From: an uncultured Candidatus Bathyarchaeia archaeon
Lineage (GTDB): Archaea; Thermoproteota; Bathyarchaeia; TCS64
Length of the DNA: 40,597 nt
Direction of reading: 5' to 3'
Assembly: GCA_964559155.1 (NCBI GenBank)
Contig: CAZLHA010000002.1
Span: 1 to 40,597 of the forward strand
Position numbers and translations under genes: made by a program. The notes under the pieces were generated by a model, which did no database searches, was not told the origin of the DNA, and worked only from the letters and a program-made list of their open reading frames with translations. Of this stretch, positions 26,144 to 37,405 are shown in pieces (the stretch's first letter is position 1; the number at the start of each line of letters is the position of its first letter).

Positions 26144-27121
26144 TTAATACCTGAGCTGTTTATCCACCAAGTTGATAGGTGTCTTACCTTCCTGGACTCG
26201 TTTAATGTTCTCCACCATGATCTCCAGTGATGCATCGCTCTGATGATCAGTAAACACGATATTATGTGGAGTACAGATGACGTTATCCAGTTCCCAGAAA
26301 GGATACGCTGAAGGCGGCTTATCCTCAGTATTCCACAGAGGGTCCCAAAAGTGAGGCTGCCACCAGACATCTAATGCAGCTCCAGCGAGGTGACCATCTT
26401 TCAAGGCCTCGTAAAGTGGTCTCTCTTGTACAATTGCTCCCCGAGCCACGTTCACTATATACGAGCCCTTTTTCATCGCTCTAATCTCTTTTTCACCAAT
26501 TAACCCCTTAGTCTCTGGTGTTAATGGTAAGGTAATCACCAAGAAGTCGGATTCACGCATTAAATGCTCCAGATCGTCTTGGCCACCGAGCCACTCTAAA
26601 CCTAGCTCATCTCTTAGCTTCTCATCCCGTTTCCTCCTAGTAGCGATAACCTCCATTCCCAGGCCCTTAAGCATCTTTGCAACCTCAACACCTATGGAGC
26701 CCATGCCTAGAATCCCCGCTGTCATTCCGTGAAACAGTACTCCTCTTTTATCCCCCCGCCCCTCTAGGAACCTACTATGCCTTGGCACGATTCTCTTAGC
26801 CAGTGCCAGTAGAAGGGCTACTGCTCCCTCAGCCAATGGCAACGGGTTACTTCCACTGGTGTTAGCCATATAGGTCTCAGGCCTCAAGGCATCGAAAGGC
26901 ATATCGTCAACCCCCGCCCCGGTCTTCTGGAGTAGCTTAATCTTCGATGCGTTCTCCGCTACAATAGGTGATAACCGTGTTGAGACTATAACATCCACAT
27001 CTCTCGCTAATTCAACCAATTCCTCATCAGTACCCTTCTCCGGGTAGACTACATCAACATCATCAGGTAAACGCTCCTGTATACGCTCCGCGAGCCCCTT
27101 GTAAACCACTAAAACCTTCAT
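26144..27121 (-). CDS. D-isomer-specific 2-hydroxyacid dehydrogenase family (glyoxylate/hydroxypyruvate reductase or PGDH-like)
   Basis: 325 aa. NAD-binding GILGMGSIGVEVA; catalytic-region motifs VNVARG and the PH near the C-terminus (CTPHN). Confidence 0.8.
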   Translation of the reverse strand: MKVLVVYKGLAERIQERLPDDVDVVYPEKGTDEELVELARDVDVIVSTRLSPIVAENASKIKLLQKTGAGVDDMPFDALRPETYMANTSGSNPLPLAEGAVALLLALAKRIVPRHSRFLEGRGDKRGVLFHGMTAGILGMGSIGVEVAKMLKGLGMEVIATRRKRDEKLRDELGLEWLGGQDDLEHLMRESDFLVITLPLTPETKGLIGEKEIRAMKKGSYIVNVARGAIVQERPLYEALKDGHLAGAALDVWWQPHFWDPLWNTEDKPPSAYPFWELDNVICTPHNIVFTDHQSDASLEIMVENIKRVQEGKTPINLVDKQLRY

Positions 27122-27196
27122 AGTACTGAGTCTGGAACGGCATCCTTTAGCCGTTACGAGTCCAAACAGTTTACCTTTTTATACAGGATTCCTACT

Positions 27197-28648
27197 ATGC
27201 CGTGGTCAACCAGTATGGTCAGTAAGGCAACAAGGAAGATGCATGAGATCGGCTATGTTCCCCCGCGGGAATCATGGACCCCCGTTGATGAAGCCCTGTA
27301 CGGAGTGGAGACACTATTCCAGCTCCCCATAGAAAAAGCGGATAAGCTGAGACTCCAAGCGATCAAATATGCATTCAACTACTGGTACGAGAACAGCAAA
27401 TGGTATCATATTTACTGCAACGAATTCGATTTCAAACCAAGCCAGCTACAGACAGGTGACGACCTAGCCAAAGTACCTCTAATAAGCCACAGATTCTTCA
27501 AAGCCTACTTGGAGGGACAAGAGTTCGTCAACTGGCTCCTGAGCATAAGCATCAACAAGGTGGAGAAACCTGATATCACTAAGAAGAATCCCAGTATGGA
27601 TGAACTCATTGATGTATTCAGCGAGAAAGGCTTGAGCCCGGTCTACAGCAGCGGAACCAGTGGAAGATTCAGCTTCATACCGAAAGACCAGAAAACATAC
27701 ATGCGTAGCCAGTACGCCCTGGGGAAGATGGGTATCAGCGAGATGCTGGAACACTGGTACGATGAGTCAGCTTATGCTTACCTCTGTGGACCAAACCCGT
27801 CAAAGACCAACATGTGGGTTGGTAAAGTGGTCAAATTAATGGATGATGTCTACACTGATGTCCAGTACGCCATAGATAGGGAGATCACAACCCAACTTAT
27901 GCGCATCAGCAACGGCGATATACGTGGCCTCAGCGATGCTGTCATGGCCGCGGCAATGCAGCTATTGGGCACCACACGCAAGATCACGGGCAATGTAATC
28001 AAGTGGCTAGAGGAACGGGATAAATCCGGAGACAGAGTATTCATAGCAGAAGCCCCCTTCATTATGCAGAGGGTCTTCGATAAACTGGAGGAAGATGGAA
28101 GAACCTTCGATTTCGGTGAACGAGGCGCCATCATCACAGGTGGGGGCTGGAAGCTCCACGACACAGAGGAGATACCCCTAGAAGAGTTCAGAGATAAAGC
28201 TGAGCGTGTACTGGGGATTCCCCATGAGAACAACATCGACCTTTACACCATGGTGGAGAGTAACTGGCACGCCATCCAATGCCCAGAAGGACACTACCTG
28301 CACCTACCGCCAACCCTAGTCCACCCAATGATACTTGACGAGAACAATCAGCCACTAGAATACGGTGAGACTGGTAGATTCGCGTTCATAGACCCGCTCG
28401 CAAACAGTTACCCTGGAGCCATCATCACAGGTGACATGGTTACATTACTGGAAGAATGTCCAGTATGTGGAAGAAACGGTCCAGTACTGGAGCCCAATGT
28501 TCGCAGAATGAGCGGCGAAGAAATACGAGGATGCGCCGAGGAGATGCGCCGATTGATGGATGATCAGACACCAGAGCTACTCCACGACCTAGTATGCACG
28601 CCAGACCGTGCACGGATGCCCATGATGATACTGGATAAAGAAGACTAG
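27197..28648 (+). CDS. LuxE-like acyl-protein synthetase / adenylate-forming enzyme with N-terminal extension
   Basis: 483 aa. The P-loop-like YSSGTSGRFSFIP and IITGGGWK motifs match my recollection of the LuxE / PaaK-F390 synthetase class. A CPVCG motif lies near the C-terminus. Confidence 0.55.
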   Translation: MPWSTSMVSKATRKMHEIGYVPPRESWTPVDEALYGVETLFQLPIEKADKLRLQAIKYAFNYWYENSKWYHIYCNEFDFKPSQLQTGDDLAKVPLISHRFFKAYLEGQEFVNWLLSISINKVEKPDITKKNPSMDELIDVFSEKGLSPVYSSGTSGRFSFIPKDQKTYMRSQYALGKMGISEMLEHWYDESAYAYLCGPNPSKTNMWVGKVVKLMDDVYTDVQYAIDREITTQLMRISNGDIRGLSDAVMAAAMQLLGTTRKITGNVIKWLEERDKSGDRVFIAEAPFIMQRVFDKLEEDGRTFDFGERGAIITGGGWKLHDTEEIPLEEFRDKAERVLGIPHENNIDLYTMVESNWHAIQCPEGHYLHLPPTLVHPMILDENNQPLEYGETGRFAFIDPLANSYPGAIITGDMVTLLEECPVCGRNGPVLEPNVRRMSGEEIRGCAEEMRRLMDDQTPELLHDLVCTPDRARMPMMILDKED

Positions 28649-29862
28649 GCTAATCCCTGTTCTTTTTGCCACTTATCTTTATTTCTTATACATCCGCTGT
28701 CAGCGGCCATAGGCTCACCGATATAGTTAATGGCGCGAGCCCTGCAACCACCGCAAAGGTACCTGAACTGGCATGAGCCGCAGTTATCCTCCAAGGCGTC
28801 TCGATCAGTGAAACAAGGATACGTAGCGAAGCGTTCCCAGATATCCCAGAAAGGTTCTTCACGGATATTGCCCTCAATCCAGCTCTTGATGAACATACAT
28901 GGGCTAATGTCTCCATTTGGCTGGATACATACAAACTGGCGACCCGCACCACAGCCCTGTAAGGACTCTAGAGGAACTGTTTGGTGTTTGTCGCTCATTG
29001 TGTTATAATGTGTTGGACTCTGAACGTAGAACTGCTCGCTCTTCTGCGCTTTTGTCTCCACATAGAGCCTGTCAGGTTCAAGATACTTACCGAGGCTGCC
29101 CTCTAGACACGCTCTACCATACTGGGGTGCTGTACTAAGTACCTCTAGTCCAATTGTTCTGCGGCGTTTGAAGAGCTTGCTGAGCACCATCTCACGTTCC
29201 TCTGGACTAATATCGTTCTCCGCGTATTCTTTTCCCCTACCCGTTGGTACGAAGTTGAAGTGTATAAACCTCTGTGCCCCCAGCTCAGCCGCCAAGTCCA
29301 GCATTGCATCAACCTCGTCGACAGTCTCTTTCGTGAAAACTGTGGCTACAGATGTAAATATTCCAGCCTCTACACAATTCTTTATTCCTTTAACTGTCTT
29401 CTCCCAGCAGCCTTTGGCTCCCCTGAACTCATCATGCTTCTCAGGGTCTACGCTGTCTAAGCTAATCTCGATATAAGCTAACCCGTGTTCCTTGAGCTTG
29501 GCCGCGAAATCCTTGGTGAGCATTGTTCCGTTGGTGGCGGTAGCTACATGCATGCCCTTGGATACCATATAATCCAGCACAGTGAAATAGTCAGGATGAA
29601 TCAACGGTTCACCACCACTAATCATGGGGACTTTTACACCCGCATCCTCCATGGTGTCAACGAAATTGATTTTCTCCTCCAGCGTCAACTCATCCGGTGT
29701 CCCCGATGCTTTCGCATCCTGATAACAGTGTTTACAGTTGAGGTTGCACATATTGGTAAAGTTCCAGACCACCATGTACGGTATCCTGTTTGGCTTATCC
29801 TGTGGTTTCCCGATATGTCTTATCTTTTTACCCAACTGGTCTACGATAGATCTTATAGCCAA
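28645..29862 (-). CDS. radical SAM / SPASM-domain enzyme (NirJ/AhbC/AhbD-like)
   Basis: 405 aa. CNLNCKHCYQ (CX3CX2C), SGGEPL, TNGT, FNFVPTGRG. The C-terminal auxiliary-cluster cysteines are CGAG...CIQPNGDISPC...CGSCQFRYLCGGCRARA. Confidence 0.8.
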   Translation of the reverse strand: MAIRSIVDQLGKKIRHIGKPQDKPNRIPYMVVWNFTNMCNLNCKHCYQDAKASGTPDELTLEEKINFVDTMEDAGVKVPMISGGEPLIHPDYFTVLDYMVSKGMHVATATNGTMLTKDFAAKLKEHGLAYIEISLDSVDPEKHDEFRGAKGCWEKTVKGIKNCVEAGIFTSVATVFTKETVDEVDAMLDLAAELGAQRFIHFNFVPTGRGKEYAENDISPEEREMVLSKLFKRRRTIGLEVLSTAPQYGRACLEGSLGKYLEPDRLYVETKAQKSEQFYVQSPTHYNTMSDKHQTVPLESLQGCGAGRQFVCIQPNGDISPCMFIKSWIEGNIREEPFWDIWERFATYPCFTDRDALEDNCGSCQFRYLCGGCRARAINYIGEPMAADSGCIRNKDKWQKEQGLA

Positions 29863-29958: not shown

Positions 29959-31380
29959 TTAGTTAACGCTATATTTTATATCCGCGTTAACGACTATTGA
30001 ATTCTTTAGCTGGGTAACCGACTGAATATCCAGATCAAGTAGTAGATCACTCCCTTCCAACTGATGCCTAATAATGGAAGGAGTTAACGGAATTCTAGGA
30101 AAACTCTCCAACACCTCTTTCTCGATGCTACGTTCTAGCCGCTTCATCACTCGTCTAGGCAGCCTCCAGTCTAACCCCACATCAAGATCAAAGCCATTAA
30201 TCTCCACTAATAGATGCTGCTCTTCATCTACAACAATACCTAACTCCGCGTTAACAAGCTCTATACGCTTCTGACGCGTATTATATCTCAGGGTATTAAA
30301 AATTCGTCGACTTCTGCCTACCACCTTGTCGTCTTCCCATGGAGTAAATATGTCAGGAATGGGCCCGCTGGTATCAAATTCAAGGGCTGCGTCCAGTTCG
30401 ATACGTAACACAGCGGATAAATCCACAACGGCCTCGGCTTCAAGCTTAATATTATCTTCCTCCAGGATTAATACTGGTTTATGGACCTCAATAACTCCAG
30501 AATAGTCTAACCAAATATTGATAAGATCCCAGTCAAGCTCCACGAAGCCAAGGGTGAAGAGTTTAGGGAATAACTCAATACTATAATTTGAGAAGTAATC
30601 AATCAACTCACCAATATCATTTATCTTGTTTCTACCCGTAAACCCCTGTCTTTTAGGATAAGTTGTCCTCTCCCACCAGAACTCTAGAACCTTTTTCATT
30701 GCTGAATCAGAGACTGCAACCGCTAAATCATTTCTCAGGTTTATGCTCTCCTGACTTGTCTTGACTCCATCTCCAGGTAATTGAATATCAAATGCGACAG
30801 ATACTTTGTCATGATCAAGTACTTCGACTTTACCGAAGCCAAGGGGTAGAAGGTTCTCCTTACCTGGGGGCATCTCAGGGAGGTCTAGTTTCCCAGCGAT
30901 AGGTGAAACAGGTATAACATCTAGGTCATCCAATCCTTTTCTGATAACCCCCCGAATAATATCATTAATGGAGTTCACTAAAAAACGGGGTAATTCTATC
31001 GACTTGAGTAATTTTACCTCGTCTAGTCTTATTTCCTGTATTTTTAGTTCAAGTTGATTTGATGCCCTGTTATAGGTTGGTCTACTCATGATTCTTCCTG
31101 AGGTACGGGTTTTTACTTGGATGATGTTAAAGCTGATTTTTAGCCCTGCATTAAAGAATATTTTTATTTTTCTGCTTGTCAGGGCATCTACTCTTAATGG
31201 TTCTGTTAGTGTGATCTCATAGTAGAGTTTCTGGTATTCTTTTAGTATTTCTGGTGTGTCTAACAGGTATATTCCCTGGATGATACCCGGTATTATTTTC
31301 TCTTTCTGCATATTTTCTAGAGACCTGTTGATGAAACCCTCAGACGCCTCTACAATTATATCGTACCCTAATTTACTCAA
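29959..31380 (-). CDS. cytosolic 473-aa protein with internal duplication; tentative BPI/LBP/CETP-like (TULIP) two-lobe architecture
   Basis: No signal peptide or TM segment. Both halves open with the same motif (res 7-22 DIIVEASEGFINRSLE; res 218-233 DLAVAVSDSAMKKVLE). The length and several segments parallel my recollection of BPI. The product call is speculative. Confidence 0.45.
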   Translation of the reverse strand: MSKLGYDIIVEASEGFINRSLENMQKEKIIPGIIQGIYLLDTPEILKEYQKLYYEITLTEPLRVDALTSRKIKIFFNAGLKISFNIIQVKTRTSGRIMSRPTYNRASNQLELKIQEIRLDEVKLLKSIELPRFLVNSINDIIRGVIRKGLDDLDVIPVSPIAGKLDLPEMPPGKENLLPLGFGKVEVLDHDKVSVAFDIQLPGDGVKTSQESINLRNDLAVAVSDSAMKKVLEFWWERTTYPKRQGFTGRNKINDIGELIDYFSNYSIELFPKLFTLGFVELDWDLINIWLDYSGVIEVHKPVLILEEDNIKLEAEAVVDLSAVLRIELDAALEFDTSGPIPDIFTPWEDDKVVGRSRRIFNTLRYNTRQKRIELVNAELGIVVDEEQHLLVEINGFDLDVGLDWRLPRRVMKRLERSIEKEVLESFPRIPLTPSIIRHQLEGSDLLLDLDIQSVTQLKNSIVVNADIKYSVN

Positions 31381-31463
31381 TATTTACAAATATTTCTTTG
31401 AGGTAACCTGATAAGAACCTTAGCTAGAATAACTCAAACTCATTTTGATTACTCTTATTCTTA

Positions 31464-31772
31464 TCAGATTATATTATCTACGAGGCTCCATGAATCATCT
31501 TTAACGATAAAACCCCAGAAAGATGTGTACTTGTTACACCTTGCATATTTTTTGAGTTTCTCAAGAGTGTCCCTGGATTTTATGTAATCCCTTTTCTCTT
31601 TCACCACTATAATACGTTCTAGGTTATCCTCTCTGGCAAATATCTCCGGCTTAACCCTGTTAAACTCGGGCATCCTCTCTGGGTTCTCCATTATATTTAT
31701 CACAGTGAAACCTTCGAGACGGAGGCGATCACTATAATTCTTAATGAAGTGTCGATAGTACTCTGAGCTCAT
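31464..31772 (-). CDS. hypothetical 102-aa protein
   Basis: Clean ORF on the same strand, 83 nt upstream of the 473-aa gene. Mixed alpha/beta pattern, no canonical catalytic motif recognised. Confidence 0.4.
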   Translation of the reverse strand: MSSEYYRHFIKNYSDRLRLEGFTVINIMENPERMPEFNRVKPEIFAREDNLERIIVVKEKRDYIKSRDTLEKLKKYARCNKYTSFWGFIVKDDSWSLVDNII

Positions 31773-32045
31773 AGGATCCAGGGGAATAATGTTGTGTTGT
31801 TATATGAAGAACAGCTTAGAACATTCTGGAACGATCGTTCAAGATGAATAAGTAACCTGTTTAACGTCTCAAAATGGTTGATATCAGTTTCCCTGTGACC
31901 AGACCCATATAGATGTCCTTTAATTCATTCATACTTTCTTCCCGGTTCTATCTATGACCGTATTCCTAGGATAAAATGTTCAATAACCGAGAGCTGAGTA
32001 CCCTCGGGGGAAAAGATAATAATCCTGGAAACTATCCCTCTCACC

Positions 32046-32483
32046 ATGCCTAAACTCGACCTAGATAAACTCGATAAACGTAGCTATAACCTTGGTATGA
32101 TCTACGCTTTCTCTGAGGTGGTGGGAAGCGGTGTTAAACGTCTGGGGCTTAGTCCTCCCCTCTCCACGGAAGAATATAATGCGATAATAGATGATGTAAG
32201 GCTCGTCGCAGAGGAATACGGAGTCACCTTACATACAGATAACGATTTCTTAGAGACATTACTCTTCAACCCGGACTTTACCAGAAACAAGATAGTTATC
32301 CATCTAGCAGACTCCAAGGAGACACTGAAGGAGTACCTACAGTTAAAAGAACAGAAAAAAACACTGATAGAGCACGACGAACTAACGAAGGAGAAGGAAG
32401 AAGAGATCGCCAGATCCTTAGGATCTTTACTCAGCTATAGCAAAGAAACCGTAGATGATCTATTGACTAATCCCAGATTCTGA
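32046..32483 (+). CDS. hypothetical 145-aa protein
   Basis: Clean ORF with a charged helical C-terminal half. No family recognised. Confidence 0.4.
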   Translation: MPKLDLDKLDKRSYNLGMIYAFSEVVGSGVKRLGLSPPLSTEEYNAIIDDVRLVAEEYGVTLHTDNDFLETLLFNPDFTRNKIVIHLADSKETLKEYLQLKEQKKTLIEHDELTKEKEEEIARSLGSLLSYSKETVDDLLTNPRF

Positions 32484-32499
32484 TCCCTAACTTTATTCT

Positions 32500-32820
32500 C
32501 TAGTCCATTCGTTCTAGTTTAAATATTACAGGTCTTAATCCATCGGTGCAGCATCTAATCATCTCCTTCTCCCCCAGCCATGGATAGAAGCTACCTCCAT
32601 GATGCAGGACCCTAACATATTCAAGAATATCATGCCAAGCACTAGGGCAGAACCCTTCGGGAGGTGTACCCATACTCTCCGCAAAGAAAGTTTGCCCCTC
32701 TTTGAATACTGGGCATGCTACATGAGGGACGTTATTCTCCGTATTAACGGGAACCTGTTCATAGATCATTGAAGGCTCTATACATTTTAGCACAGTAATC
32801 TTTACTTTATGTTGAACCAT
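32500..32820 (-). CDS. TIGR04076-like small Cys-containing protein
   Basis: 106 aa. CPVFKEGQTF...PEGFCPSAWHDI...IRCCTDGLRPVIFKLER matches my recollection of the TIGR04076 family signature. Confidence 0.5.
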   Translation of the reverse strand: MVQHKVKITVLKCIEPSMIYEQVPVNTENNVPHVACPVFKEGQTFFAESMGTPPEGFCPSAWHDILEYVRVLHHGGSFYPWLGEKEMIRCCTDGLRPVIFKLERMD

Positions 32821-33034
32821 TATTATTCCTTCTTTAATCTCTCTAACTTAAACATTAATGGTTTACTCTTATGATCAAATCAACTAGGTTTTAGTCATAG
32901 TTGAAAGAGTTTATGCTCTTTGGTTGTATATACTTAGCTTTCTTACTGTTTCTTCAGTAGAGTATCTAAACCATATATACTGTATAGGTATAATTGATAA
33001 TAACGATTCAAACCACTACATAATAGGATACAGA

Positions 33035-33412
33035 ATGGTTGAATTACCCGAAGCTGCAAGAGAACAAATGAAACCACTCGATGAAGATGAGGAGGTCATA
33101 GGTTCATATGAATGTAGGATAGATTTCATGAGAGGATTCCTCTTATGCACAAACAAGGGAATACAGTTCATACAAGGTGGAGGCAACTATGAAAGATGCT
33201 TCCACAACCAATTCTATGCCCCTTACAGTAAATTAGATGTGGGAGAAGAAGCGAACACCAACCTAGTTCTAACCATCGATGGGGAGGCATACAGAAAAAG
33301 ACTTGAACCAATTGGTGAGCCAATCCAGGTTCTTGAAAACATGTTGAAGTCTTATGTTCGGATACATGAGATGCCTACCCCGTGCATACAGGATATGAGG
33401 ATAAATCACTAG
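33035..33412 (+). CDS. hypothetical protein, possible bacterial-PH/GRAM-like fold
   Basis: Start taken at MVELPEAARE (ATG 33035). EEVIGSYECRIDFMRGFLLCTNKGIQF resembles the PH/GRAM-like 'G.L.lTn..i.F' pattern. Weak. Confidence 0.3.
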   Translation: MVELPEAAREQMKPLDEDEEVIGSYECRIDFMRGFLLCTNKGIQFIQGGGNYERCFHNQFYAPYSKLDVGEEANTNLVLTIDGEAYRKRLEPIGEPIQVLENMLKSYVRIHEMPTPCIQDMRINH

Positions 33413-33462
33413 CATCCATTTTTCTTCATTAATGTTAAATCCCGTCATACATATCCTCACTT

Positions 33463-34158
33463 ATGAAGCCACTTATCGGTATAACCTCAAGATTTAGCAG
33501 TGAAAATAAGAGATATAATCTACCCGATGCCTACGCCAAGGCTATCCAGAGAAACGGTGGAACACCCATAGTAATACCGCCCTTATACGAGGCAGAGTAC
33601 CAGCAATTATACGAGAGTGTAGACGGTGTGCTCTTCACAGGTGGACCAGACGTGGACCCTATACTATACGGGGAGGAGCCCCTACCCAAACAGGGCGGTA
33701 TCGAGCCAATGAGGGATGATTTTGAGTTCAAACTAGCCAAGATAGCCTTGGATGGCCCCAAACCCGTGTTTGGGATATGCAGAGGACTACAGGTCCTGAA
33801 CGCGGCAGCCGGTGGCACATTGATTCAGGATATTGGTAGCCAGATTGATGAGCCGTTGAAGCATCGTCAGGAGGCTAAGGCATGGTATGGCACCCATCAT
33901 GTACGACTTGAACAAGGGTCAACGCTACATAGATTATATGGAAAAGATAAGGTGCTAACTAACACCTTCCATCATCAAGCCTGTAAAGACCCGGCTCCCG
34001 GGTTCACTGCAACAGGGTGGGCTGGGGATAACGTAGTTGAGGTGTTGGAGATTGAATCCGAGCCATGGAAGCTATGCGTCCAGTGGCATCCAGAGCATAT
34101 GGACAATGAAGACATGAACAAGCTCTTCCAGGCTTTCATTCATGCCTGTCAAAAGTAA
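33463..34158 (+). CDS. class I glutamine amidotransferase-like gamma-glutamyl hydrolase (peptidase C26, PuuD-like)
   Basis: 231 aa. Nucleophile-elbow GICRGLQVLN and C-terminal VQWHPE. Confidence 0.8.
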   Translation: MKPLIGITSRFSSENKRYNLPDAYAKAIQRNGGTPIVIPPLYEAEYQQLYESVDGVLFTGGPDVDPILYGEEPLPKQGGIEPMRDDFEFKLAKIALDGPKPVFGICRGLQVLNAAAGGTLIQDIGSQIDEPLKHRQEAKAWYGTHHVRLEQGSTLHRLYGKDKVLTNTFHHQACKDPAPGFTATGWAGDNVVEVLEIESEPWKLCVQWHPEHMDNEDMNKLFQAFIHACQK

Positions 34159-36293: not shown

Positions 36294-36806
36294 ATGATAC
36301 ATGCATCTATGAATTTCAATTGTCAACAATGTGGAAAATGTTGCCGTGATCTGGTCTTCAGAGACCATGGAGTACTCCGTGGTTTAACTCTTCTCCCAGA
36401 GGAAACAGAACACTTCAGGGAAGAAGCCATAGAGCCATACCTCGGCTCAGGTAAACACCCGGACAGCGTGAACTTCACGATACTTGCTTATCAGTTAATA
36501 GAAACAGTCTGCCCCCATCTAGCGGAAAACATGTGTAATATATACGCCTCCAGACCAGTTTCCTGTAGACAATTCCCCTTCAGCCTAGACCCCGACCCAG
36601 AGGAGGGTGTACTTCTCGGTGTAGACATGAACTGCCCCGCAGCCGTTGAACTCGTGAATAACTGCACTGGACAGATCGCCTTCCCGGATAGAGACGCGGC
36701 CGCTAAGTTATTCTCCTTAAAACAATTAGCTATGAAGAAACCTAGACAGGTCTGGGTCTATGATCTAGCTCAAGAAAAATGGGTCCGCTATGATAGGTTA
36801 GATTAG
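36294..36806 (+). CDS. YkgJ/UPF0153 family CxxCxxCC cysteine-cluster protein
   Basis: 170 aa. The N-terminal CQQCGKCC plus downstream C...C...C pattern is typical of the putative zinc/iron-chelating domain family. Confidence 0.65.
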   Translation: MIHASMNFNCQQCGKCCRDLVFRDHGVLRGLTLLPEETEHFREEAIEPYLGSGKHPDSVNFTILAYQLIETVCPHLAENMCNIYASRPVSCRQFPFSLDPDPEEGVLLGVDMNCPAAVELVNNCTGQIAFPDRDAAAKLFSLKQLAMKKPRQVWVYDLAQEKWVRYDRLD

Positions 36807-37405
36807 AAACCTATCACAGTATTAGTCACCATGGGGATGCTTCTCTCTATAGCTAGTTTAGCTCCACCACTGGGCTGTATCTCAATCCTGAGCTCCTCAT
36901 ATGGATGCGTATAGATGTTATTCCTATCCTCCTGTACTGGATCCACGCTGGTTCCATCTAGCTCAGTGAAGTCGATTACCACCTTGAATTTTTCACCTGC
37001 CTCAAGCATAGAGTCTCCATCACCGGCAACCGGTGTAATGGTGGTCACAGTACCGTTAGAGTCATAGATGGATCCATGACACCTGGGGTTAGTATACGTG
37101 ATAACCACCCTGTTATCATCCATATCAATGGGGGTACCTCCCTGACTGAGTCTGAGATAGAAAGTAGCCTTGGTGAGACATATGGTGCTCTGGGCACCTG
37201 TTGTGTTAGCGAATGTTCCAATAACCTCAGAGTCCATCTGTAATGCTGCGCTGGACTCATCAATACTGCTGCTTATAACCGACTGGGCTTGCTCCGCCGA
37301 TAACGCCCCCATGTTTAGAACCACGAAAGCGAAAGCTGAAGAAGTAATCACAAAAGCCACCAATATAATGGCTGTCTCCAAGCCCGTTAATCCCCGTCTA
37401 CTCAT
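36803..37405 (-). CDS. archaellin / archaeal type IV pilin-like protein (class III signal peptide)
   Basis: 200 aa. The N-terminus MSRRGLTGLETAIILVAFVITSSAFAFVVLNMG closely parallels crenarchaeal FlaB N-termini (..KGLAGLDTAIILIAFIITASV..). The C-terminus EIQPSGGAKLAIERSIP is archaellin-like. Confidence 0.75.
   Translation of the reverse strand: MSRRGLTGLETAIILVAFVITSSAFAFVVLNMGALSAEQAQSVISSSIDESSAALQMDSEVIGTFANTTGAQSTICLTKATFYLRLSQGGTPIDMDDNRVVITYTNPRCHGSIYDSNGTVTTITPVAGDGDSMLEAGEKFKVVIDFTELDGTSVDPVQEDRNNIYTHPYEELRIEIQPSGGAKLAIERSIPMVTNTVIGF

Follow-up and report, generated by a model that had tools for sequence, protein, structure and literature searches.

A predicted double-TULIP protein without a signal peptide in Bathyarchaeia belongs to an unnamed family of archaea and anaerobic bacteria

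TULIPs are central lipid carriers and sensors in eukaryotes, where BPI, LBP, CETP and the SMP tethers are well-known examples. The TULIPs described in prokaryotes so far are bacterial and, where their location has been predicted, extracytoplasmic (PMC6791001). Bacterial double-TULIPs include DUF4403 (Levine 2019, PMC6791001) and Bdellovibrio TipA (bioRxiv 10.1101/2025.09.09.675085). BPI, CETP, P47/OrfX and TipA all bind lipids (PMC6791001; PMC7020563; bioRxiv 10.1101/2025.09.09.675085): the cargo of BPI and CETP consists of phospholipids or neutral lipids, lipid binding by P47/OrfX was seen in vitro (PMC6791001; PMC7020563), and TipA holds several lipids and binds bilayers (bioRxiv 10.1101/2025.09.09.675085). 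According to a 2025 survey, most lipid-transfer superfamilies are nearly exclusive to eukaryotes in current annotation (PMC12139934), and the literature that we searched contained no description of an archaeal TULIP. Here, we analyse a gene at 29959..31380 on the minus strand of a 40,597-nucleotide stretch of DNA (hereafter the window; contig CAZLHA010000002.1 of assembly GCA_964559155.1) from an uncultured Candidatus Bathyarchaeia archaeon. Its 473-aa product is predicted to fold into two TULIP lobes in the manner of BPI, LBP and CETP.

The structure of the protein was predicted twice with AlphaFold2, once from a close-family alignment of 15 sequences and once from a wide alignment of 52 sequences. 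The first model reached a predicted local distance difference test (pLDDT) score of 80.9 and a predicted template-modelling (pTM) score of 0.75, the second a pLDDT of 86.2 and a pTM of 0.79. In both models, each half of the chain runs from a strand through helix A, a long twisted sheet and helix B to two further strands. According to DSSP, both halves therefore contain the elements that define a TULIP domain, namely helix A, a long twisted antiparallel sheet and a helix B enclosed by it. The six-stranded, head-to-head interface of BPI-like and bacterial TULIPs has been described as built from one strand that precedes helix A and two that follow helix B (PMC6791001), and the element order in each lobe of the window protein fits this description. 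The BPI-type arrangement of two homologous lobes, each giving one plus two strands to a central sheet, is thus found in the predicted models, as judged from hhalign, the strand order and full-length Foldseek matches.

Searching the PDB with Foldseek in two runs yielded the best full-length matches to BPI (1BP1; E 1.5e-12 to 1.9e-12), LBP (4M4D) and CETP (2OBD), all at a probability of 1.00 and together spanning E values of 1e-12 to 1e-10. Clostridial P47 (E about 3e-10) and OrfX1–OrfX3 were likewise matched at a probability of 1.00, and BPIFA1 at about 1. The best superposition of a single lobe was obtained with YceB of E. coli (3L6I; TMt 0.55–0.65, root-mean-square deviation (RMSD) 3.9–7.5 Å, Foldseek probability about 1.0). 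Every high-probability match in both runs was a TULIP protein. Neither an SMP-domain structure nor a TipA entry was among the PDB matches listed by Foldseek; SMP had no Pfam match either, and BFVD contained no viral structural counterpart. A double-TULIP fold had been proposed in an earlier, sequence-only reading of this stretch, which named an AlphaFold model searched with Foldseek as the check and absence of the fold as the outcome that would overturn the idea. Two models and two PDB runs place the fold in both halves, with only TULIPs (BPI, LBP, CETP, P47/OrfX, YceB and BPIFA1) at probabilities of about 1.0, and the proposal is upheld. The fold call is supported at the level of predicted structure: the models support the TULIP fold of each lobe well, but not the exact geometry between the lobes.

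The N-terminal lobe comprises residues 1–212 (30745..31380, minus strand) and the C-terminal lobe residues 213–473 (29962..30744, minus strand). These boundaries follow from the translation, DSSP on the AlphaFold2 models and the hhalign alignment of the two lobes; the superposition of YceB on one lobe bears on the first of them. In the N-lobe, DSSP delineates a strand at residues 8–13, helix A at 14–26, long strands between 33 and 123, helix B at 132–151 and strands at 180–188 and 192–199. The corresponding elements of the C-lobe, which is longer by about 50–70 residues, are a strand at 219–224, helix A at 225–238, long strands between 280 and 398, helix B at 409–426 and strands at 446–457 and 461–472.

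That the two halves are homologous is clear at the profile level. A Smith–Waterman comparison of the raw halves did not detect the duplication (z = 1.0). Alignment of the N-lobe and C-lobe family profiles with hhalign gave a probability of 97.3% (E 5.8e-11) over 188 colinear columns. This alignment pairs the opening motif of the N-lobe, residues 7–22 (DIIVEASEGFINRSLE; 31315..31362, minus strand), which covers the interface strand and the start of helix A, with the opening motif of the C-lobe, residues 218–233 (DLAVAVSDSAMKKVLE; 30682..30729, minus strand). Exactly these residues had been singled out by eye in the sequence-only reading as the mark of an internal duplication. Within the motifs, D7 is nearly invariant across the family and K230 is invariant within the close family (alignment A1); W236, in helix A just past the C-lobe motif, is invariant in both family alignments.

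Sequence searches were far less telling. With the single 473-aa protein as query, searches of Pfam, NCBIfam and PDB sequences returned nothing, even at E ≤ 10; PADLOC gave no match and PHROGs a single short, meaningless one. The Pfam BPI (LBP_BPI_CETP) models matched neither the window protein at E ≤ 10 nor any of 52 family members at E ≤ 5, and Pfam matches to DUF4403 and to P47/OrfX were absent from the same set of proteins. A PDB search with the 52-member profile found only a weak match of an Ada zinc domain to the C-terminal tail of relatives. The commonest weak Pfam matches among the 52 members were to DUF1439/YceB (PF07273), in five of them and with a best E of 0.0012. The curated threshold of PF07273 was not reached, and the window protein itself had no YceB/DUF1439 match. 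When the N-lobe was aligned with a YceB profile, the two were colinear (P 0.0055 versus 0.58 for the reversed control) at an hhalign probability of 6.6%, with a YceB profile that was shallow (homologs at least 81% identical); the link to YceB is suggestive only. As regards LmeA (DUF2993), DUF2140 and DUF4403, the anchor or signal typical of them is lacking here, and a single LmeA match (E 0.017) among the 52 members was all that Pfam returned.

A direct comparison with human BPI, whose sequence was checked against 1BP1 beforehand, led to the same picture. The best local alignment joins residues 62–120 to BPI 58–114 at 25% identity (pairwise E 0.021, shuffle z 2.8), and the 52-member profile aligns colinearly with BPI (5–471 versus 2–456) at an hhalign probability of 1.6%. 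The sequence-only reading had rested its case on echoes of BPI in short motifs. The quoted motifs all lie where it had placed them (starting at residues 7, 218, 53, 425 and 459) and fall on topologically equivalent elements, yet they are no evidence by sequence: neither the local alignment nor the profile comparison is significant, and no Pfam BPI model matches. Shuffling of the short strings was discarded as a test because hand-picked strings inflate z-scores; the whole-protein test against BPI is not significant. Judged by these searches, the protein is not a sequence member of the BPI/LBP/CETP, DUF4403 or TipA families. Taken with the predicted fold, it represents a new, unnamed and signal-less family or branch of the known TULIP fold, with a signature of its own and present in archaea.

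Could the likeness to TULIPs be a product of modelling, the protein being an unrelated β-rich one such as a MACPF, aerolysin or Bin pore-forming toxin? Global template-modelling (TM) scores below 0.5, the lack of confirmation by any sequence method and the presence of BinAB, pleurotolysin, MACPF and autotransporters among the low-ranking Foldseek matches all fit such an artefact. However, these non-TULIP matches have TM-scores below 0.16 and probabilities of 0.02–0.15, versus 1.00 for six different TULIP families, and a pore-forming toxin fold was rejected on that ground. Moreover, two models from different alignments agree, the profile-level duplication independently predicts a two-lobed pseudo-dimer, and such faint sequence signals as there are favour YceB and LmeA over toxins. 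We therefore regard an artefact as extremely improbable.

The coding sequence runs from a TTG start at 31380–31378 to a stop at 29961–29959. In the open reading frame (ORF) listing, this TTG is the earliest possible start downstream of the preceding stop, and homologs on other contigs begin at the same position (MS..GYD), so no signal peptide is hidden upstream. The N-terminus, MSKLGYD..., is not hydrophobic and, unlike those of BPI, LBP and CETP, does not form a signal peptide. The maximal 19-residue Kyte–Doolittle hydropathy is only 1.21, which argues against a transmembrane helix. The protein is acidic, with an isoelectric point of 5.1 (4.8 for the C-lobe), and contains no cysteine. The identical protein occurs on three public contigs. 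Protein and gene order are shared with a Ca. Bathyarchaeia metagenome-assembled genome (MAG) at 89% identity and with a Ca. Bathyarchaeota assembly at 83%, and a flagellin/pilin domain of archaeal type (PF01917), encoded in the window by a 200-aa gene (36803–37405, minus strand), is an independent archaeal marker for the contig; the host is therefore archaeal. In all these respects, namely the 473-aa frame and its extent, the lack of a signal peptide and of a transmembrane helix, and the archaeal host, the sequence-only reading is borne out.

The overall architecture is reminiscent of BPI, LBP and CETP, which also consist of one chain of about 460–475 residues with two homologous, highly diverged halves and share the element order of each lobe, with helix A preceded by one strand and helix B followed by two. 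Unlike these proteins, the window protein has a prokaryotic host, no signal peptide and no detectable sequence similarity to them, and its larger C-lobe carries an invariant acidic loop. The conserved disulfide in the N-lobe of BPI, Cys135–Cys175, is missing from the cysteine-free window protein, and whereas the N-lobe of BPI is cationic, the window protein is acidic. With DUF4403 and TipA it shares, judging by the models, the make-up of a prokaryotic pseudo-dimer in which a single chain forms two TULIP domains and a BPI-like central sheet. However, DUF4403 and TipA are secreted or lipid-anchored in the periplasm, whereas the family described here lacks signal peptides and is present in archaea. 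TipA also partners with a small β-sandwich adaptor, TipB, for which this family has no conserved gene. YceB, despite its close superposition on one lobe, is an outer-membrane lipoprotein with one domain and about 186 aa, whereas the window protein has two domains and neither lipobox nor signal.

An exhaustive phmmer search of 1.84 billion representatives (E ≤ 1e-3) found 69 family proteins. A word-indexed search returned 16, every one of them unnamed or "hypothetical", and a deeper profile search of a word-indexed set of 5.8 billion proteins added almost no new members. A motif-based scan of species-representative genomes, built on the close-family alignment A1, identified 32 family loci. The archaeal hosts are Bathyarchaeia, Methanoperedens and Archaeoglobi; the bacterial hosts are Dehalococcoidia, Anaerolineae, Chloroflexia, Syntrophomonas and other Bacillota, several Bacteroidota and Fibrobacter, the last including a MAG assigned to Fibrobacter succinogenes. 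We take all named hosts to be anaerobes. Overall identity across the family is 20–25%, and almost all of the 52 aligned members lack a signal peptide or transmembrane segment. It is a small, unnamed family common to archaea and anaerobic bacteria, and not specific to archaea.

In archaea and Dehalococcoidia the gene is present in single copy. At 22 bacterial loci, the F. succinogenes MAG among the carriers, it forms a tandem pair of paralogs on the same strand, with B (about 575 aa) coming after A (about 540 aa) and a gap of typically 12–30 nt between them; two of the predicted ORF pairs overlap. The pair of Pseudobacteroides cellulosolvens (WP_036943598.1 and WP_036943600.1; L017:6001-7620 and L017:7648-9456, same strand, among loci L015–L038) comes from a cultured bacterium. 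A rough neighbour-joining tree resolves three groups: paralog A (88% bootstrap), paralog B (100%) and the single-copy archaeal and Dehalococcoidia proteins (83%). The branching within A is mirrored by that within B, which suggests that the pair moves as a cassette and that its two products form a heteromeric complex. The window protein resembles paralog A more closely than paralog B. The TULIP-like gene is a unit of its own, which in bacteria takes the form of the A/B pair.

The signature of the family is a loop in the C-lobe. In the window protein it comprises residues 336–351 (DTSGPIPDIFTPWEDD; 30328..30375, minus strand, from the translation), lies between the two longest C-lobe strands and is invariant in the close family, with the general form DTSGPIPDxxTPWEDD. 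Among the 59 near-full-length family ORFs at the loci, 49 contain the motif D[TS]Sxx[IVLF]PDxx[TS]PWxDD: 14 of 15 single-copy proteins, 20 of 22 A paralogs and 15 of 22 B paralogs. Its pLDDT is only 53–79 in both AlphaFold2 models. Tracing the strand order at both ends of the lobe, we infer that the loop sits at the distal tip of the C-lobe. In BPI, LBP and CETP, the distal tip is the region that meets membranes or lipoproteins.

Taking fold, family and signature together, we consider it probable that the protein is a soluble, most likely cytoplasmic double-TULIP whose two BPI/LBP/CETP-like lobes hold hydrophobic ligands and deliver or sequester them at a membrane. In such a molecule, each lobe would be a long twisted antiparallel sheet wrapped around helix B, and the strand before helix A and the two after helix B of each lobe would form the central sheet between the lobes. 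By analogy with characterised TULIPs, the predicted apolar pockets would most likely hold lipids or similar hydrophobic molecules, singly or a few at a time, to be delivered to, or sequestered at, a membrane; lipid binding by the window protein is suggested by its predicted fold. The acidic and aromatic loop DTSGPIPDxxTPWEDD is the proposed docking site: a divalent cation could bridge it to the membrane, or it could instead bind a partner or another copy of the protein. Given its acidic and aromatic character, the loop would require such a cation to bind anionic membranes directly. Alternatively, the loop may be a protein–protein or tip-to-tip contact, which would be in keeping with its being conserved in A and B paralogs alike. 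Because the same invariant loop spans hosts with ether-linked isoprenoid and ester-linked acyl lipids, its target is probably common to archaeal and bacterial membranes. A cytoplasmic location is inferred from the lack of signal peptides and transmembrane segments in almost all of the 52 members and from the acidic, cysteine-free window protein. The His/Cys-rich, zinc-type tail of relatives likewise fits the reducing cytoplasm.

Several observations weigh against this reading. No sequence method is significant against any known TULIP family, and global TM-scores to BPI and CETP are 0.37–0.41 with an RMSD of about 12 Å, which implies that the inter-lobe geometry either differs from theirs or is poorly predicted. 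The best-conserved residues are polar (D, T, S, K and W), which is unusual for TULIPs and could mean a non-lipid ligand or a protein partner. Gene neighbourhoods provide no link to lipid metabolism. Finally, the members from a cultured bacterium, P. cellulosolvens, are entered in RefSeq as "hypothetical protein".

Most family members carry an additional C-terminal tail of about 45 aa of the form 'EVHRxDC...GYYxLxDAxxxGYxxCxxCLP' (Hx3C...Cx2C), for example in Methanoperedens (L010:1172-2791) and in P0021 and P0015. The tail weakly resembles the Ada zinc domain (E 0.23 to Ada in the PDB; Pfam PF02805 at E 0.019 in two members). It is present in both bacterial paralogs, in Methanoperedens and Archaeoglobi, in one Bathyarchaeia lineage and in Dehalococcoidia. 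It is absent from the Bathyarchaeia subclade of the window, though found in most members outside that subclade. In P0042, P0050, P0053 and P0076, long charged or proline-rich C-terminal extensions replace it. Hemopexin repeats (Pfam PF00045, best E 7.9e-41) form part of two fusion proteins in the family, P0082 and another member of alignment A2.

The invariant polar loop and, in relatives, the zinc-type tail raise the question of whether a TULIP-like fold has here been put to a use other than lipid carriage, acting through them to bind or scaffold a polar small molecule, a metal ion, a nucleic acid or another protein. Conservation does peak at the polar and acidic positions within a single loop, and a few further conserved residues lie in helix A of the C-lobe and near helix B; most members have the Ada-like Hx3C...Cx2C tail; the bacterial A/B pairs look obligate and suggest a heteromeric complex; and no lipid-related neighbours are conserved. 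However, all experimentally studied proteins of the same fold among the search results bind lipids or hydrophobic ligands, and the long amphipathic strands and the amphipathic helices B are maintained across the family. Furthermore, the subclade of the window has lost the zinc-type tail yet retains two lobes. On this evidence, a non-lipid scaffold appears fairly unlikely.

Comparison with P47 and OrfX bears on a further alternative. Like the window protein, P47/OrfX are not known to carry classical signal peptides. As with P47, OrfX2 and OrfX3 (5WIX, 8BGM), TULIP paralogs lie side by side in this family, in the form of the bacterial A/B pairs. The structural match to P47/OrfX (TM 0.30–0.35, RMSD about 20 Å) is lower than that to BPI and CETP, and the lobes of P47 are packed side by side rather than head to head (PMC6791001). 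Whereas OrfX and P47 are encoded in toxin gene clusters, the neighbours of the window gene are housekeeping genes or unknowns, with no toxin gene nearby. The protein might nonetheless be released without a classical signal, by lysis, in vesicles or by another route, and act on foreign membranes as an antimicrobial or toxin accessory like BPI, OrfX/P47 or the predatory TipA. Foldseek matches to P47 and OrfX1–OrfX3 would be in line with this, as would the several TULIP paralogs per operon of OrfX/P47, whose localisation is unresolved (PMC7020563). The patchy spread over distant anaerobes and the mirrored A and B trees, which suggest horizontal transfer of a cassette, point the same way, and so does the fusion of two members to hemopexin repeats. 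Yet toxin, secretion and immunity genes are absent nearby; there is no PADLOC match, no meaningful PHROG match and no viral structural match; and the protein is acidic, not cationic. Cysteine-based zinc tails, moreover, are atypical of extracellular proteins. Overall, we hold a released factor of this kind to be very unlikely. A defence-system or phage origin was rejected on the same lack of PADLOC, meaningful PHROG and viral fold matches.

With a signal-less double-TULIP family that spans Bathyarchaeia, Methanoperedens, Archaeoglobi and many anaerobic bacteria, the fold is seen to range more widely than before. The cultured P. cellulosolvens makes it a tractable target for asking whether hydrophobic molecules travel through the prokaryotic cytoplasm on carriers. 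In its boldest form, the reading as a cytoplasmic carrier would make the protein the founding member of an ancient TULIP-type lipid-shuttle or membrane-docking family of archaea and anaerobic bacteria, with a cargo that might be shared by both membrane chemistries, such as polyprenyl phosphates or quinones, and an invariant acidic and aromatic tip for cation-dependent docking. We think this extended version distinctly unlikely; if it were true, prokaryotes without organelles would already use intracellular BPI-shaped carriers, and the TULIP lineage would extend to archaea, with a bearing on the origin of the intracellular TULIPs of eukaryotes. The relevance to eukaryogenesis that the sequence-only reading had attached to the protein is overstated. 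The motif-based scan of species-representative genomes found no Asgard member, the family is common to many anaerobic bacteria, and in sequence it is no nearer to eukaryotic TULIPs than to bacterial ones. The link is weak for these reasons, and the family is not a direct ancestor of the eukaryotic proteins.

The gene neighbourhood contributes little to a function. A 102-aa ORF (31464..31772, minus strand; 79 aa according to one gene caller) lies 83 nt upstream on the same strand, as had been noted before. It has a sub-threshold Pfam match to AHJR-like proteins of the restriction-endonuclease fold (E 0.0084; 16 bits versus a cutoff of 26). Directly downstream is a radical SAM/SPASM gene (28645–29862, minus strand), followed by a gene of the LuxE-like acyl-protein synthetase family (27197–28648, plus strand) and a 2-hydroxyacid dehydrogenase (26144–27121, minus strand). 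The 102-aa ORF is conserved only beside relatives of at least 83% identity, and the radical SAM/SPASM and LuxE-like genes are syntenic within the same limit. In relatives of 47–48% identity, glycoside hydrolases or a thioredoxin-like protein are encoded next to the gene, and at other loci TFIIB, PEP mutase, cytochrome c peroxidase, aminotransferases or ribosomal protein L10. Neither a TipB-like adaptor nor any other recurring partner was found across the family loci. The 102-aa ORF was accordingly rejected as a functional partner or TipB-like adaptor, its neighbours beyond the close relatives being unrelated, and a function was not deduced from operon context, since neighbours are not conserved beyond relatives of at least 83% identity.

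The downstream trio at 26144–29862 is syntenic only in the closest Bathyarchaeia relatives and may be a small modification or biosynthesis cluster of its own. The G+C content falls to 0.40–0.43 at 30001–34000 of the window, versus 0.48–0.50 between 18 and 30 kb, and is similarly low between 2 and 18 kb. The low patch holds the TULIP-like gene and four small ORFs without a Pfam family (102, 145, 106 and 162 aa), and may reflect ordinary heterogeneity.

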